Shown: positions 2,514 to 46,778, counted from the first letter of the stretch. The stretch is DNA of 64,000 bases from an uncultured Planctomycetaceae bacterium (GCA_963813715.1 CAWFAK010000005.1:992001-1056000), one strand, 5' to 3'. Program-made: numbers and translations. The notes: generated from the sequence alone by a model not told the origin.

Positions 2514-3480
2514 GAGACGACCCAGCGGCCGAGGCACGGCTCCGGTCGCAGCACCGCGATATCGGCTTTTCAACGTCCCGCCGGTGTCCCGCCGTCGAGA
2601 GGTCTCAAAGCTCGATCAACTTTGCCGTAAACCACTTCGCCCGAATTCTGCGGCCCGCCCGTGCGTGCCGCTGCCGATTTCTCTGCCGACCCTATTTCTT
2701 TATCGGCAATCTCCCCAGGGAGGGGAGACGGGTGATCGAGCAAACGGGGGACTGTTTTCGTCAAACAGCCGAAGCAGCCAACCTGCGCAGTCAGTCGACG
2801 CTCATGCCACTCGCAGCGCTTGACCCGCGTGAGTTTTCCGCGTGAATTTACAAGGGCGATTTTTCTAGCCGTCGCCAACCGCAGGATAAGTCGTAACTAC
2901 TGATCCCCATATGTGTTTGCTAGCCTGACCCATGTCAAATTAGACCGCAGATCGCGGGGCGCGTCAAGAACAATCCGCTACGGGCGGCACAAGGGGGCAA
3001 GTCGCCGGGTTCGGTAGAATCGGCCATGTCGACGCGTGGTGCGGCATCTCCAACGTCGCAGGACGGGTGTCGCGGCCAGTTCCCCGACGCGGGCGACACC
3101 GAAGTGGGGCTGAGGCCGATTGTGCCGACGGAATCGATTCTTCTGCGGCACCCTACACGCGACTGGTCATTTCGCGTCGCAGGGAGGGGGAGCGATGGTT
3201 CGTCGAGAGGGCGTTCAGCAGAGAAGATTGCGGCCGCGGCTAAAGAAAAACAGCCGGGAGAATTCCGGCGGTGGGGCAGGAACCACAAGAATTCAGCGTC
3301 CGGCTGCCATTCCCATTTTACTGCGGAAGGGGCGGGCTTGCAAACTTCGGGCAAGGCTGGATTAGAATGCGCGGGCTGCATCTGGAACTCCTTAACCAAG
3401 ATGCGACGGCGGCTGCTCCGGATGGCAGTGCCGCCTCGACGAAGCGACGACGAGACAAATCCGACATCAGCCGTGCTCAC

Positions 3481-3562
3481 GCGAGAGTGGCGGAATTGGC
3501 AGACGCGCCAGACTTAGGATTTGGTGCCGCAAGGCGTGGGGGTTCGAGTCCCCCCTCTCGCA
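3481..3562 (+). tRNA. tRNA-Leu (anticodon TAG)
   Basis: Acceptor stem GCGAGAG/CTCTCGC-A, D-loop GGAATTGGCAGAC, anticodon arm CCAGA-CTTAGGA-TTTGG, long variable arm, T-loop GGTTCGAGTCC. CCA is not encoded. Confidence 0.97.
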
Positions 3563-3750
3563 TTCCCCCGCAGCTGCCCCCTGTGACGTAGAATTCGCGC
3601 GCCGTCACGCGTTCTCCAAGACCTGTTCAGACGTCTCTGTCTCGGCCGCGCACAACTCGCAGAGTCCGGGGACGCACTATCTTCACTCGAGACGCATGAT
3701 TTTTATCCGCTGTGGACGTGCTTCGCCACGCGGCTTCCAAACGTGCGTTT

Positions 3751-3773
3751 TGCAAGTCCCTCTTGCGTTTTTT
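3751..3773 (+). terminator. possible weak intrinsic terminator downstream of tRNA-Leu
   Basis: GCAAG-TCCCT-CTTGC hairpin followed by GTTTTTT. Confidence 0.35.
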
Positions 3774-3820
3774 GGACCGGTCAACTACAAGACCGAAGCC
3801 CCGAGGTAGTTCTTGGCACC

Positions 3821-4072
3821 GACATGGATGTCAGAGTCAAGACCCATCCGAAGCGCCGACCGGTGGCACGAATTCGGGCCGCCCCGGCAGGCGGAGTAAC
3901 CGCCCCTCACGCGCGAGGAGCCTCAAGGCAACGTGCCGGCATGGATGCCGATAACCGGCCGCTTTCTGCACCGGAGCGCTTTCGTGGCGAACCCGGCAAA
4001 GTGGCCCGGATCGCGTCGCACGACCCAGTGGCCGTCGCGATCTGACAAGGATGTAAAGTGCCGGAAAGGAGG
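3821..4072 (+). promoter_or_regulatory. leader (or small RNA) with multiple CsrA/RsmA-type binding hairpins
   Basis: GACA-TGGA-TGTC (3821-3832), CGGCA-TGGA-TGCCG (3937-3950), ACA-AGGA-TGT (4045-4054), plus GGA in the SD AAGGAGG (4066-4072). Matches the ANGGA-in-loop CsrA consensus and lies directly upstream of a CsrA-domain gene. Confidence 0.6.
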
Positions 4073-4080
4073 CCTCGATC

Positions 4081-4866
4081 GTGTTAGTTCTCACCCGCAG
4101 AGAAAACGAGAAAATCTTATTGCCCGACGTGGGCGTGACCGTCGAATTGATGTCGGTCACTGGTAACCGCGCCCGCTTGGGCATCAGCGCTCCCGATAAC
4201 ATTCGCATTCTTCGCGAAGAAGTCGCCGTCAACCAGGCTGTTCTCAAGCAGGCCACGGTTCGCGGTTCGATGTCGCGAGAATTCGTTCATGCCTTTCGCA
4301 ACCGGCTCAACGCGGCCATCCTGGCGGCCGAGACCGTGCGGATGCAAATCGAAGCCGAACGCCTCGACGATACGTCAAGCACGCTCGATCGCATCGTGAC
4401 CGAGCTCCGGGCGATGGCGTCGATGGTCGAAGGACCGCAGCCGGTCGCCGCGCCGCCGCTTGTCGCGTCAGGAGTGGGCGAGCACCGGCCTTGGAAGGCG
4501 TTGGTGGTCGAGGACGACGCCAACGAGAGCTTGCTGCTGGCCGGAATCCTGCGGATGACGGGGTACGAGGTCGACGTCGCCGGTGACGGTGCGGACGCTC
4601 TCGACTATCTCCATTCGCACGCGCGGCCCGACGTCGTGCTGCTCGACATGAAGCTGCCGAAGCTCGACGGGGCCACCACGCTCGGTCGCATCCGCCGGGA
4701 TCCCAATCTCGAGGGGATGAAGGTCTACGCCGTCAGCGCGACGCCGCCCAAGCGGTTTGGCGTGAAGACGGGACCGGGCGGCATCGACCGTTGGTTCTGC
4801 AAGCCTCTTGATCCGCGGGAGCTGGTGCGCCAACTCGATAGCGAGCTGAGCGCCCTCGATCGCTGA
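4081..4866 (+). CDS. CsrA (carbon storage regulator) domain fused to a response-regulator receiver domain
   Basis: N-term MLVLTRRENEKILL...RLGISAPDNIRILREEV (CsrA). Linker FVHAFRNRLN resembles a HisKA H-box. C-term REC: LVVEDD...VVLLDMKLPKLDG...VSA...CKP. Confidence 0.9.
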   Translation: MLVLTRRENEKILLPDVGVTVELMSVTGNRARLGISAPDNIRILREEVAVNQAVLKQATVRGSMSREFVHAFRNRLNAAILAAETVRMQIEAERLDDTSSTLDRIVTELRAMASMVEGPQPVAAPPLVASGVGEHRPWKALVVEDDANESLLLAGILRMTGYEVDVAGDGADALDYLHSHARPDVVLLDMKLPKLDGATTLGRIRRDPNLEGMKVYAVSATPPKRFGVKTGPGGIDRWFCKPLDPRELVRQLDSELSALDR

Positions 4867-4886
4867 CGCCCAGGCGTCAGCGGTTT
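4861..4886 (+). terminator. perfect 10-bp hairpin overlapping the csrA-REC stop (terminator-like)
   Basis: CGCTGACGCC-CA-GGCGTCAGCG followed by GTTT. Confidence 0.4.
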
Positions 4887-5222
4887 GCCGAATTCGGCCG
4901 TCGTCATCGATGGCTGCGTTGCAGTAAGCAGACGGCGCGGATGCAGGATCCGCGCCGCTTCTGAGATCGCACAACTTGCCGGTCCGGCGCCCCCACGCCC
5001 GTGCTGGGCTCGTTCAGCACGGATCGGCGGCCGCTTCAGCTGGGAAAGACACCCACCGTGCAGCCAAAACAATCGCCGCGCTCGCTGCCCCCTTCCGGTC
5101 GCGAGGCCGCCCCGTCACGCAATCTGGCTTTCGACTTCCAGCGGTCGGAGTTTGACACGGCCGCTCAGCCCTACGAAACATTTCAGACCACCACCGACGA
5201 GCCGCTCCCCCGACATTGGAAC

Positions 5223-6717
5223 ATGAACGGCATCAACATCGGCGAAAGTCTCCGTCGCGCCCTCGAGGTGTGCGAGGCGGCCTTCGACGACATCGTCGAT
5301 AAAAGCGCCGACGGTGTGGTCGTCGTGAACCCCGTCGGCACGATCTGTTTTGCCAACGCGGCCGCCGAATCGATGCTGGGCCGCTCGACGGGCGAACTTC
5401 TGGGCGAACCGTTCGGAATGCCGGTGGGGGCCGGCGAAACATTCGAGATGAAGCTGCCCTCGACCGATCAGGGCTGCCACTTCGCCGAAATCCGCGTCGT
5501 CGCCACCCATTGGCAGGGCTCGCCCGCCTTGCTGGCCACCCTGCGCGACGTCACGCAGCGCAATCGGGCCCTGCGCCGTCGCGACGAATTCCTGGCCATG
5601 CTGTCGCACGAACTGCGCAATCCGCTGGCGGCCATCTCCAGCGCGGCGAGCGTGCTGGCCCGCCCCGACCTCGACGGCGACGCCTTTGCCAGAGCCCGCG
5701 GCGTCATCGAACGGCAGTGCGCAAATGACCCGCCTGCTGGCCGATCTGCTCGACGTCTCCCGCGCGACCCGCGCGAAGATCGAGCTGCGCAAGAAATGCC
5801 TCGACCTGGTCGACGTGATCATCGAAGCCGTCGACGCGGTGCGCGGCGAAGCCGAGGCCGTCGGCCAGACCGTGTCGCTGGTTGCCAGTGTCGACATGAT
5901 TCCAGTCGACGGCGACGCGGTGCGCTTGCACCAGGTGTTTGTGAACCTACTTTCCAATGCGTCCAAGTTTTCCGGTGCCGGAAGCCCAATCCGGGTGATG
6001 GTGGGGATTGAGGAGGATCAGGCGGTCGTCAAAGTCCGCGACCAGGGAATCGGGATGACGCCCGAGGTGTTGGAGGCCGTGTTCCAGCCCTTCGTCCAGC
6101 TCGACTCGTCGCTGGATCGGCCCGGCGAGGGCCTGGGTCTCGGCCTGGCGATTGCCGATTGCTTGATCAAGCTGCACGGCGGCGCGGTGCGGGCGTCGAG
6201 CGAAGGCCTGGGAAAGGGGAGCGAGTTCTGCGTCCGCCTGCCCCTGTCTCGCTCGCGTCCCGAGTCGGCGCCCACGTTAGCCGACGCCGCGACGGAGACG
6301 GCGCTACGCGTGGTGATCGTCGAGGACAACGCCGACGTGGGCGAGATGCTCAAAACGTTGCTGGAGTGCGTGGGGCATCAGGTGGAGATTGCCGCCGACG
6401 GCCTGACCGGCGCGGAACTGATCGAACGCATGCATCCGGACGTGGCCCTAATCGACATCGGCCTGCCCGCGCTCAACGGTTACCAGCTCGCGCAGCGAAT
6501 TCGCTCCGACGACGCCCATCGGGACGTCTACTTGGCGGCGCTCACCGGCTACGGACAAGCGGCCGACCAGGAGAAGGCCCTGTCTTCGGGCTTCGATACT
6601 CACATCGCCAAGCCCGTCAGCGTCGAGCACCTGCGCAGACTGCTTGCTTCGCGACAACGAGTCCGCCTCAACGTGGCGGCAGCCGAAGAAGCGCAAGCCG
6701 AGCTACCCGCGCGTTGA
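5223..6717 (+). CDS. hybrid sensor histidine kinase (PAS-HisKA-HATPase_c-REC); frameshift near 5720
   Basis: PAS (DGVVVVNPVGTICFANAAAESMLG), H-box FLAMLSHELRNPL, N-box QVFVNLLSNASKF, G-boxes DQGIG and GLGLGL, REC VALIDIGLP...KP. Two overlapping ORFs (5001-6011, 5686-6717) are joined. Confidence 0.9.
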
Positions 6718-45103: not shown

Positions 45104-46340
45104 CTACACGACGTCCGTTTCCGCCGCCGTCCAAGTCCCCGAGCCTGAGATAGTTACGCCGGGGCCGGCGTTGGGGGCGAAGATGGTCCAGGTGCCGCTG
45201 AGGACGTTTCCGTTGGCCGTTGGTACGCCTGTGCCGGAGAAGGCGAACGTCACCGGCGTCTGGTTTTCGAGGAAGGTGGCCAAGCCGTTGATGTTGCCGT
45301 CGCCACCGGCGGTCCCGTTGCCGAATCCCGAAACGTCGTTGAGGAACACGATGACGGACCCGCCGAAGATCTGAATGTTGATCGAGCTGCCGGCGATCGG
45401 ACTGTCGGTGATGGTGCCGTTGTCATCGACGGTCGCATTACCGGTGACCGTTCCCGCGTAGACGCCGTCGAGGTCCAGCACGCTTTCCAAGGTCCAGGTG
45501 CCTCGGCCCGTGACGAAGATGCCGCCCGGCAGATTGGCCCGGAAAGTCCAGACGCCGCTGCCGTTGACACCGTCGACACCGCGCGACGCCGGGCCGTTGG
45601 CGGTGACGGTAATCGTCACGCCATCCTCGACGAAGGTGACTGTGCTATTGATGCGTCCGTTGACGTCGATCGTTCCGCCCGGCGACGTCACGCCGGACGA
45701 ACTGGAGAAACTGCTCGAAACGACGCCGTTGGTGATCGCCGCCGAGAAGGTCCCGGGAGTGATCGGCGTGGTTGTCGTCGATCCGTTTTGCGTAACGGTC
45801 ACCGCTCCCTGGTACGTGCCGCTGTACGGTCCGTCGAAGTTGCTCAACGTCTGCGGGGCGCTTGCCGACCAACTTCCGCTGCCGCTTGCGGTCACGCCGC
45901 CGCCCAAGTTCACGGAGAAGGTCCAGCTGCCGGAAGCCGCCGTCTGAATCGCGTTGACGTTGGTGATTTTTCCCGCCACCGAGATCGGCACCGTCTGGCT
46001 CTGGTATTGGGCGTTCACCGTGCCGACGATGTTTCGGTTGACGTCGACGGTGCCCGTGCCGTTGCCGACGGGCGAGGTGAAATTGATGACGCCGTTATTC
46101 GTGGTCATCGTGAACGCCGTCGCAGTGACGGGCGTTTTGGTGATCGAGCCGTTGTTATTGACGGTCACGGTGCCGCTGTACGTGCCGGTGAAGTTGCCGT
46201 TGAGAATGGCCAGTGTGGCCGACGAGAGCAGCGTTCGCTCTTCGAGATTCTCGATGGCCGGCCACGTCAACGAGTTGAGCGCGCGGGCGCGAACGAGCAC
46301 GGGGATGGGAGCGGAATAGCGCGAGCAACTGCGGAACCAT
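45104..46340 (-). CDS. planctomycete extracellular protein (LEPR-XLL-type signal) with three beta-rich ~120-aa repeats; frameshift near 46280
   Basis: MVPQLLALFRSHPRARSRPR.. then IENLEERTLLS; three repeats (L/F)(N/D)G.(F/Y).GT..G...GxWT...GxGxW(S/T). Confidence 0.8.
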
Positions 46341-46778
46341 CGTGTCACCTCCGAAGTTAGCATCCTTGAGACGGAGCAGTGCGTGGCCCGCAGAGCCGGC
46401 GGCCGATCGCTACGAAACGCTGAAAGCCGCAGCGCGAGCGCCAGACAGGTGGGATGATAGTTCGGACGAGTCGCGGTTGATAGCGGGATCACGCGGCACG
46501 CGTGCGACTGCGAAACGCGAATCCCCTGTCGTCGATGGCAAAGCACTGTCGCCGCCGCAAAAAAGCAAAATTGCGGCGGTGCGGCCTGGGCCGCGTGCGG
46601 ATCGAAGTCGCGCACTTGGCTGATCGTATTCGGGTTCCTTATCCCTGAATTATTCAGAAATCAGTCAGCAAAGATGCCGCATTCGGATGAAAGGAGTCGT
46701 GTCCTAAACTGTCGGATCTTAGTCATGGCGGCTATAAGCCCTGCATCGTTAGTTTTGAGAGGCACGTTGGAGTCAGGC

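Follow-up and report, generated by a model that had tools for sequence, protein, structure and literature searches.

We report that the leader of a csrA-receiver fusion gene, found in a 64,000-nucleotide (nt) stretch of the genome of an uncultured Planctomycetaceae bacterium (G000:C5:992001-1056000; hereafter "the window"), is probably a CsrA-type translational operator repressing this gene, most likely through the gene's own product. The leader carries three hairpins, each presenting a GGA in its loop, and ends in a ribosome-binding site that itself contains two GGAs (positions are counted from the first letter of the window):

3811-3842, + strand, hairpin 1, as drawn in the minimum free energy (MFE) fold: extended 13-pair stem with apical GACA-UGGA-UGUC at 3821-3832; GGA at 3826-3828
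3937-3950, + strand, hairpin 2, as drawn in the MFE fold: CGGCA-UGGA-UGCCG; GGA at 3943-3945
4045-4054, + strand, site 3: ACA-AGGA-UGU, of the high-affinity type recovered by SELEX, the systematic evolution of ligands through exponential enrichment; GGA at 4049-4051
4060-4073, + strand, ribosome-binding site GCC-GGAAAGGA-GGC: GGAs at 4063-4065 and 4068-4070; Shine-Dalgarno (SD) sequence AAGGAGG at 4066-4072
4081-4866, + strand, presumed regulated gene (Pfam): CsrA domain, helical linker and receiver domain; 261 amino acids, GTG start at 4081

An earlier reading of the sequence alone (hereafter the sequence-only reading) had described three CsrA-type hairpins spaced roughly 110 nt apart upstream of a CsrA fusion, the last of them matching 10 of 12 positions of the SELEX consensus about 11 nt before AAGGAGG. 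All three are indeed present, at 3821-3832, 3937-3950 and 4045-4054, and all three form in the MFE fold of 3775-4085 that it had suggested computing (z = -2.39; 1 of 100 shuffles equally stable). Excerpts of PMC7652899 describe high-affinity CsrA ligands as GGA motifs in the loop of a short hairpin, with the consensus RUACARGGAUGU. Site 3 (UGACAAGGAUGU) agrees with this E. coli SELEX consensus at 10/12 positions, with ACA, GGA and UGU all present, and its end lies 11 nt from AAGGAGG, as had been described; by reading the sequence, hairpin 1 agrees at 9/12 positions and hairpin 2 at 6/12. All three hairpins fall into one 12-nt direct-repeat family in a repeat search, and their GGAs are predicted to be largely exposed in this genome, with mean unpaired probabilities of 0.66, 0.93 and 0.71 for hairpin 1, hairpin 2 and site 3, respectively.

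The GGA-to-GGA spacing is 117 nt between hairpins 1 and 2 and 106 nt between hairpin 2 and site 3. Downstream, the GGA of site 3 stands 14 and 19 nt from the two GGAs of GGAAAGGAGG (4063-4072), which lie over the SD, 11-18 nt 5' of the GTG at 4081. One E. coli CsrA dimer is described as bridging sites that are 10-63 nt from each other, optimally about 18 nt (PMC7652899), and the distance from site 3 to the SD falls inside this range and near the optimum.

The gene downstream encodes a CsrA fusion, as the sequence-only reading had stated: Pfam recognizes CsrA at residues 1-49 (E = 6e-15) and Response_reg at residues 141-252 (E = 9.8e-18). Residues 1-49 align with E. coli CsrA (1y00), the beta1 motif MLVLTRR (MLxLTRR) is kept, and so is the arginine of the REE motif that aligns with E. 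coli R44. The fusion is one of about eleven CsrA-domain loci in this 7.49-Mb genome (others include C7:807279-807434, C9:409150-409305 and C5:1103197-1103352). The ten other loci are stand-alone open reading frames (ORFs) with a stop 54-129 codons past the start of the domain, one of which appears frameshifted. Among full-length Pfam matches, the fusion CsrA domain scores lowest but three, at 52-55 bits vs 66-90 bits for six paralogues.

Conservation of the leader within the genus

All 11 other genus genomes (11/11) have an orthologue of the fusion gene, with protein identities as low as 62-67%. When positions -60 to +15 were aligned across the 12 genomes, site 3 (ACAAGGAUGU; ACAAGGATGT) proved invariant in 12/12, including the ten-base SELEX-like core, and the SD region read G(C/U)CGGAA(A/G)GGAGGCC in 12/12, varying only at these two positions; the C-to-U change in the SD helix preserves the pair as G-U. 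The roughly 10-nt spacer between site 3 and the SD varies among the 12 genomes, as does everything upstream of site 3, and in 11/11 leaders 32-34 nt separate the GGA of site 3 from the start codon downstream.

Upstream of this module the genus falls into two groups. Leaders of about 230-290 nt are found in G000 (the genome studied here), G002, G010, G007, G009 and G003, and leaders of about 75 nt, with GA(A/G)GGAAGGA at the 5' end, in G001, G004, G005, G008 and G011. Scanning metagenome contigs for the pattern of site 3 plus SD added six loci, which, being selected on site 3, count only for other features. One of these, L084, has a long, divergent leader that carries GACATGGATGTC at position 13, GGCATGGATGCT at 133 and GACAAGGATGTG at 294, i.e., at a similar spacing in an otherwise poorly alignable sequence.

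An alignment of nine long leaders, L084 among them, resolved conserved islands at hairpin 1, hairpin 2, GCACGA.CC, site 3 and the SD. Hairpin 1 is paired in 93% of cells, with two pairs changed on both sides, G-U wobbles and an invariant loop GGA that has an unpaired probability of 0.66-1.00 in the 6/6 long leaders of the genus. Hairpin 2 reads GGCAnGGAnGC in 9/9 long leaders, with 93% of stem cells paired, so that the motifs sought upstream of orthologues on the suggestion of the sequence-only reading recur both in the genus-wide module and in every long leader. Across the four helices of this alignment, 94.9% of cells pair, vs 27-43% with the partners slid. Since the stems use G-U pairs, the constraint appears to act on the + strand RNA; operator repeats at the DNA level were considered and judged unlikely, as G-U pairs in the stems would become C-A mismatches on the opposite strand. 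Leader identity to four relatives is 0.78-0.82, vs 0.51-0.59 at four-fold degenerate positions in the fusion gene. As a neutral control we tried the 230 nt 5' of the promoter, an alignment that was dropped for its more than 100 gap columns. Overall, these comparisons of sequence confirm the leader hairpins as real, conserved elements beyond chance.

Genome-wide background and a second hairpin leader

For the genome-wide frequency of ANGGAU hairpins, a check that the sequence-only reading had also put forward, we defined sites a priori as A.GGAU on a stem of 3 bp or more, made up of the closing A-U and at least 2 other pairs. This yielded 1474 sites on both strands of the 7.49 Mb, with same-strand triples within 300 nt at 2 places genome-wide vs 0.63 expected, an excess that is mild alone. 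Both triples sit in long 5' leaders. The core CAWGGATG, chosen post hoc after the sites had been seen, occurs at 277 sites genome-wide, and the locus described here is its sole same-strand triple within 400 nt; across the 64-kb window it is not enriched (6 seen vs 3.4 expected). Raw GGA counts are likewise ordinary, with 9 in the 300 nt upstream vs 1-8 before other CsrA genes. An ANGGAU hairpin in the interval -300 to -1 was found before 0/10 other CsrA-domain loci of the genome, vs 3 before the fusion gene. The cluster thus stands out because of its clustering, hairpin context and position, not its number of GGAs.

The motif alone did not delineate a regulon. We asked which of the 277 CAWGGATG sites are followed by an SD, a start codon and an ORF, listed the 14 ACAWGGATGT sites as well, and obtained no usable set: these sites lie mostly inside long ORFs or correspond to a plain SD plus ATG, including a repeated transposase-like start. 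Matches to CAAGGATG at 46-48 kb of the window are on mixed strands and mostly within ORFs, and form no comparable cluster. In the same region, at 46339-46375 on the - strand, we noted CUCAAGGAUGC, 7 nt, GGAGG, 7 nt and AUG before an ORF without a Pfam family, a geometry like that of site 3 and the SD.

The second genome-wide triple lies outside the window:

G000:C9:747616-747990 (L069/L070), - strand, long 5' leader of a Peptidase_C26 gene

This leader contains a promoter-like TTGACA-N17-TAAGTT, GAAUCGA-UGGA-UCGAUUC, AACGA-AGGGAU-UCGUU, AACAGGAUGUU and a GGA-rich SD, CCAAGGAGGGAU. Its UGGA loop is invariant in 10/10 genomes with a match (of the 12 genus genomes), one pair of its stem is compensatory (U-A vs C-G in 4/9 distinct rows), and it shows the same split into long and short leaders across the genus. 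Homology between the two leaders was tried and rejected (best local alignment score 23, vs a shuffle mean of 18 and maximum of 33). The two top-ranking clusters from a blind scan of the genome are thus leaders of like anatomy, which argues for hairpin leaders being a real class of element.

Fusion genes in distant planctomycetes

Genes encoding CsrA plus the linker were detected in 40/301 sampled genomes of the class, in relatives labelled Planctomycetaceae, Pirellulales, Thermoguttaceae, Rhodopirellula, Bythopirellula and Lacipirellula, which supports the planctomycete assignment of the sequence-only reading. An ANGGAU hairpin lies within 300 nt upstream in 12/48 distinct distant loci. Counted by length, this amounts to 12 sites in 14,284 nt where 1.98 are expected, the remaining locus sequence holding 36 in 259,582 nt. 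Among the individual instances, L094 and L095 have ACAAGGATGT at -147 and L093 has ACACGGATGT at -150. For the looser ANGGA motif, 33 loci showed about 2-fold more sites than dinucleotide shuffles, both from -120 to -21 (26 vs 11.7) and from -220 to -121 (24 vs 13.0). The ribosome-binding site GGAAAGGA(A/G)(A/G)CC also recurs in many distant fusion genes. One full-length fusion gene (L104, 43% identity) is in a metagenome-assembled genome labelled Cyclobacteriaceae; the other full-length matches are labelled planctomycete, and this genome may be mis-binned.

RNA evidence for a probable mRNA leader

The stretch is present in metatranscriptome assemblies of 17 studies, of which we examined four runs (X1-X4). 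Near-identical RNA contigs in three studies start at 3809 (X2), 3830 (X3) and 3812 (X4) and enter the gene; one contig, from X2, is unbroken over 3809-4989, and another of these contigs covers 3830-4591. Their 3' ends, at 4989 (X2), 4994 (X3) and 4988 (X4), fall just past a hairpin at 4934-4957. Runs X2-X4 have no contig cover at 3605-3787, a gap that by itself is no evidence. In X1, a contig of a related strain (3356-4144; 8 other letters and 1 gap) carries all 9 differences before 3673 and none in 3673-4144, i.e., across the promoter block, leader and CsrA domain, a pattern that could reflect constraint or a chimeric contig.

These contigs hint that leader and gene form one RNA, with a 5' leader of roughly 275-285 nt (3793/3809-4080) on a monocistronic csrA-receiver mRNA. 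A scan for terminator-like sites found none within 3800-4080. Searched with cmscan at E up to 10, the stretch 3300-4400 gave a tRNA and four noise matches (14.7-17.9 bits), and no Rfam Csr/Rsm family. Because the contigs run unbroken into the gene, no internal terminator was found in that interval and no Rfam Csr/Rsm family matched, we favor an mRNA leader over a separate sponge RNA. Of the two options left by the sequence-only reading, an autoregulatory leader or a cis-encoded Csr small RNA, the CsrA-type leader is therefore retained, conserved and probably transcribed with its gene, and the CsrB-like RNA is not. The observations that this reading had named as damaging to itself did not materialize either: the motifs are conserved and enriched over background, and contigs begin upstream of all three hairpins.

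Other elements of the leader, transcript and neighborhood

Further features of the locus are as follows:

3481-3562, + strand, tRNA-Leu, separated from the fusion gene by 518 nt
3751-3775, + strand, hairpin GCAAG-N5-CTTGC followed by a T-run (terminator-like scan), overlapping a -35-like hexamer
3763-3791, + strand, promoter-like block: TTGCGT (3763-3768), 17 nt, TACAAG (3786-3791), conserved in long- and short-leader relatives
3908-3924, + strand, candidate anti-SD segment CACGCGCGAGGAGCCUC, inferred from its complementarity to GAGGCCUCGAUCGUG (SD through start codon)
4008-4043, + strand, covarying stem 4008-4015/4036-4043 around the GGA-free loop block UCGCACGACCCA (4016-4027)
4934-4994, + strand, probable transcript 3' end: GC-rich hairpin GGCGCGGAU-GCAG-GAUCCGCGCC at 4934-4957, with contigs ending at 4988-4994
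5001-6717, + strand, sensor kinase gene: PAS and HisKA in 5001-6011; HATPase_c and receiver in 5686-6717, overlapping in another frame

From its conservation and the start positions of the contigs, we infer a candidate promoter at 3763-3791, with transcription starting at about 3793-3809; a sigma-70 consensus scan of 3400-5100 called no promoter. The block CCCT(A/C)TTGCGTTTTT is kept in all 11 genus loci that reach that far and in the metagenome loci L081, L083, L085 and L086, and the 3751-3775 hairpin accompanies the csrA-receiver gene even where the upstream gene differs. This hairpin may be an operator, the terminator of the upstream unit, a promoter element, or a terminator-promoter overlap.

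Within the leader, RNAalifold pairs 3908-3924 with 4068-4084 in 6/6 long leaders, in columns that are all invariant and thus devoid of covariation; the segment is absent from short leaders. Sequestration of the SD and start codon by this segment is possible in the modeled fold. In the 4008-4043 stem, by comparison, RNAalifold reports compensatory pairs (AU:4/GC:2, CG:4/UA:1 and CG:3/AU:2). The GCACGA.CC of its loop is invariant across 9/9 long leaders, and the element stands directly 5' of site 3; we found no partner or function for the GGA-free block UCGCACGACCCA. Two internal resemblances were also noted: the 20 nt at 3930-3949, around hairpin 2, share 80% identity with the SD region at 4055-4074 (+ strand), and the 5' end of the leader (3802-3813, CGAGGTAGTTCT) resembles the coding start (4080-4091, CGTGTTAGTTCT). 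Either could be an SD mimic or the trace of an internal duplication.

Coding potential in the leader was examined and set aside. ORFs at 3743-4045 (+) and 3712-3954 (+) and an antisense ORF at 3837-4256 had no Pfam match at E up to 0.1, and substitutions in the leader lack a third-position excess (e.g., 22/16/19 vs G010).

The linker of the fusion protein contains, at residues about 68-80 (4282-4320, + strand), the motif (E/D)F(A/V)HxxRN(R/K)LN(A/S)A, in which the histidine is invariant among orthologues; by eye it looks like a histidine kinase H-box, and Pfam gives no HisKA match at E up to 0.01. The split of the downstream sensor kinase over two frames suggests a frameshift or assembly error near 5690-5720. 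A receiver-encoding gene lies 3' of the fusion gene in several relatives. Because kinase or receiver genes adjoin the fusion gene here and in several relatives, control of the fusion CsrA activity by phosphorylation of the receiver is plausible from gene order.

Proposed mechanism and alternative explanations

We propose that a CsrA-family dimer would dock on the site 3 hairpin and bridge the 14-19 nt to the ribosome-binding site, and that the bridged dimer would exclude the 30S subunit and repress translation, as in the glgC or E. coli csrA leader. The binder would most likely be the gene's own product, giving negative feedback, or alternatively one of about ten stand-alone CsrA paralogues; self-regulation is favored because the hairpin is absent before the ten paralogues and the motif stays with the fusion gene from family to family. 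Activity of the fusion CsrA would presumably be set by phosphorylation of its receiver domain. Hairpins 1 and 2, which belong to the long-leader clade only, would be accessory docking sites raising local occupancy, a role we assign to them because they are too distant for simple bridging and missing in half the genus.

Several observations weigh against this model. At 117 and 106 nt, the distances between hairpins exceed the 10-63 nt bridging range, which leaves site 3 and the SD as the one pair of sites with a fitting geometry. The short-leader half of the genus lacks hairpins 1 and 2, which are thus inessential to the module. With about eleven CsrA-domain loci in the genome, self-binding is inseparable from cross-regulation on sequence grounds, and the fusion protein is a candidate binder only. 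The predicted exposure of the hairpin 2 GGA is high in 3/6 long leaders and mostly paired in 3/6, in the 5 short leaders the site 3 GGA reaches unpaired probabilities of just 0.00-0.37, and AAGGAUG within site 3 is itself SD-like. Covariation is thin for hairpin 1, whose two pairs changed on both sides were reached by 35/500 shuffles, and uninformative for site 2, site 3 and the SD hairpin, which never vary or change on one side only. Triples of a-priori sites are in but mild excess genome-wide, and three quarters of the 48 distant loci lack the strict motif, in a comparison whose enrichment P values ignore kinship and thereby overstate the effect. Finally, the RNA data are assembled contigs without strand, true ends or a DNA control, and hence a hint only, and the X1 contig crosses the supposed promoter.

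The alternatives to this operator reading differ in which of these points they take up. It is unlikely, in our view, that regulation comes from elsewhere alone, i.e., that one or more stand-alone CsrA paralogues bind the leader, with no binding of this mRNA by the fusion protein itself. The eleven CsrA-domain loci would supply such binders, canonical CsrA directly represses a paralogue in Legionella according to an excerpt of PMC4471563, and the Peptidase_C26 leader has the same kind of hairpin, so that these sites are not private to the fusion gene; the low score of the fusion CsrA domain points the same way. Yet the motif accompanies the fusion gene in every member of the genus and in several distant families, vs 0/10 upstream regions of paralogues, and the fusion keeps the residues aligned with the RNA-binding ones of E. 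coli CsrA. The leader may instead be structured for a different role, in mRNA stability or folding, as a ribosome standby site or SD mimic, or as the target of a different protein or RNA, its likeness to CsrA sites being coincidental. Site 3 (through AAGGAUG) and the 20 nt around hairpin 2 do resemble the SD region, the conserved GGA-free UCGCACGACCCA in its covarying stem is a further functional part, pairing with the anti-SD segment is possible, and in several genomes the AUG of site 3 is followed by a stop. We nonetheless hold this to be quite unlikely: the loop GGA stays the same where stems and loop sizes differ, all ten SELEX-like core bases are frozen, beyond the SD-like AAGGA, and the gene product is itself of the CsrA family. 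A start-stop mini-ORF at the AUG of site 3 (AUG UAA here) was specifically rejected as the cause of conservation, as its frame and length differ among the 12 genomes and no SD stands at a usable distance.

Very unlikely, to our mind, is a CsrB/RsmZ-like sponge, in which the hairpin region would be made or processed as a small RNA, or the leader would act mainly as a sponge in cis or trans. Several GGA hairpins do share a single non-coding stretch, constraint on the long leader extends well past the SD-proximal module, and the distance of hairpins 1 and 2 from the SD is too great to be simply bridged. Against this stand the lack of a terminator-like site in the interval scanned, the unbroken contigs (with which a processed fragment would still be compatible), the absence of an Rfam match, the about 75-nt leaders of half the genus, and a density of only three hairpin sites in about 285 nt, which is not the dense GGA-hairpin array of a sponge. 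A chance clustering of GGA palindromes in GC-rich intergenic DNA would agree with the ordinary GGA count and with 2 triples where 0.63 are expected, but we regard it as extremely unlikely, since conservation extends over 12 genus genomes and 9 long leaders, spacing is fixed, and leader identity is far above that of synonymous sites.

Comparison with known systems and significance

The closest parallels come from proteobacterial leaders as described in excerpts of PMC7652899. The E. coli csrA leader mediates translational autorepression (Yakhnin et al. 2011, cited there), and, as here, a csrA-family gene carries several GGA sites in its leader, one of them over the SD, so that negative feedback would be expected. 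The product here is, however, a 261-amino-acid fusion of CsrA, linker and receiver, the leader sequences are unrelated, and the host is a planctomycete (relatives Planctomycetaceae or Pirellulales) rather than a member of the Gammaproteobacteria such as E. coli. The predicted sites also differ, being stem-closed NGGA tetraloops or hexaloops, two of which lie >100 nt upstream. Repression of glgC involves an SD site and, just 5' of it, a hairpin (Baker 2002 and Mercante 2009, as cited in PMC7652899). The arrangement here is alike in that a GGA hairpin of the high-affinity type stands just 5' of a lower-affinity SD GGA site, at a spacing within the bridging range; gene and sequence differ, and the SD here is drawn as a small hairpin loop with two GGAs. 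In the Pseudomonas aeruginosa psl leader, RsmA stabilizes an SD/anti-SD hairpin (PMC7652899). Segment 3908-3924 of the long leaders is similarly complementary to the SD and start codon, and binding could join SD sequestration; unlike in psl, the pairing here is predicted without covariation and absent from short-leader relatives.

Multi-paralogue genomes offer a further comparison. CsrA is common and multi-copy in Planctomycetota (NAR 2026, PMC13443453). In Legionella pneumophila, canonical CsrA represses the paralogue csrR (PMC4471563), likewise a csrA-family gene with CsrA-type sites on its mRNA in a genome with many paralogues. The binder of csrR is canonical CsrA, whereas the paralogue regulated here would be receiver-fused and its binder is a candidate. 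The leader also resembles CsrB, CsrC and RsmX/Y/Z in the repetition of GGA hairpins in a non-coding RNA, and differs from them in having no separate transcript, far fewer sites and no Rfam match; CsrB and RsmZ have far more sites. In our full-text literature searches, no title or abstract opening among the papers listed dealt with a planctomycete CsrA target, a Planctomycetota Csr RNA or a CsrA-receiver fusion.

Taken together, these features make the leader a tangible candidate target, conserved, probably transcribed, and matching the E. coli SELEX consensus almost perfectly. The gene that it precedes is the sole CsrA gene of this genome joined to a receiver domain, and a sensor kinase gene adjoins it. 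If the ordinary reading alone holds, it would be one more autoregulated csrA-family leader. A bolder and, for now, doubtful possibility is that the receiver-fused CsrA represses translation under the gating of phosphorylation and adjusts its own level through this leader, with the A-NGGA-U leaders (at least two in this genome) marking a sponge-free, directly two-component-driven Csr regulon in planctomycetes and the extra hairpins of the long-leader clade letting the leader buffer the protein in cis. The locus thereby bears on whether GGA hairpins are recognized in this phylum, and on whether CsrA may be controlled there by phosphorylation instead of sponge RNAs.

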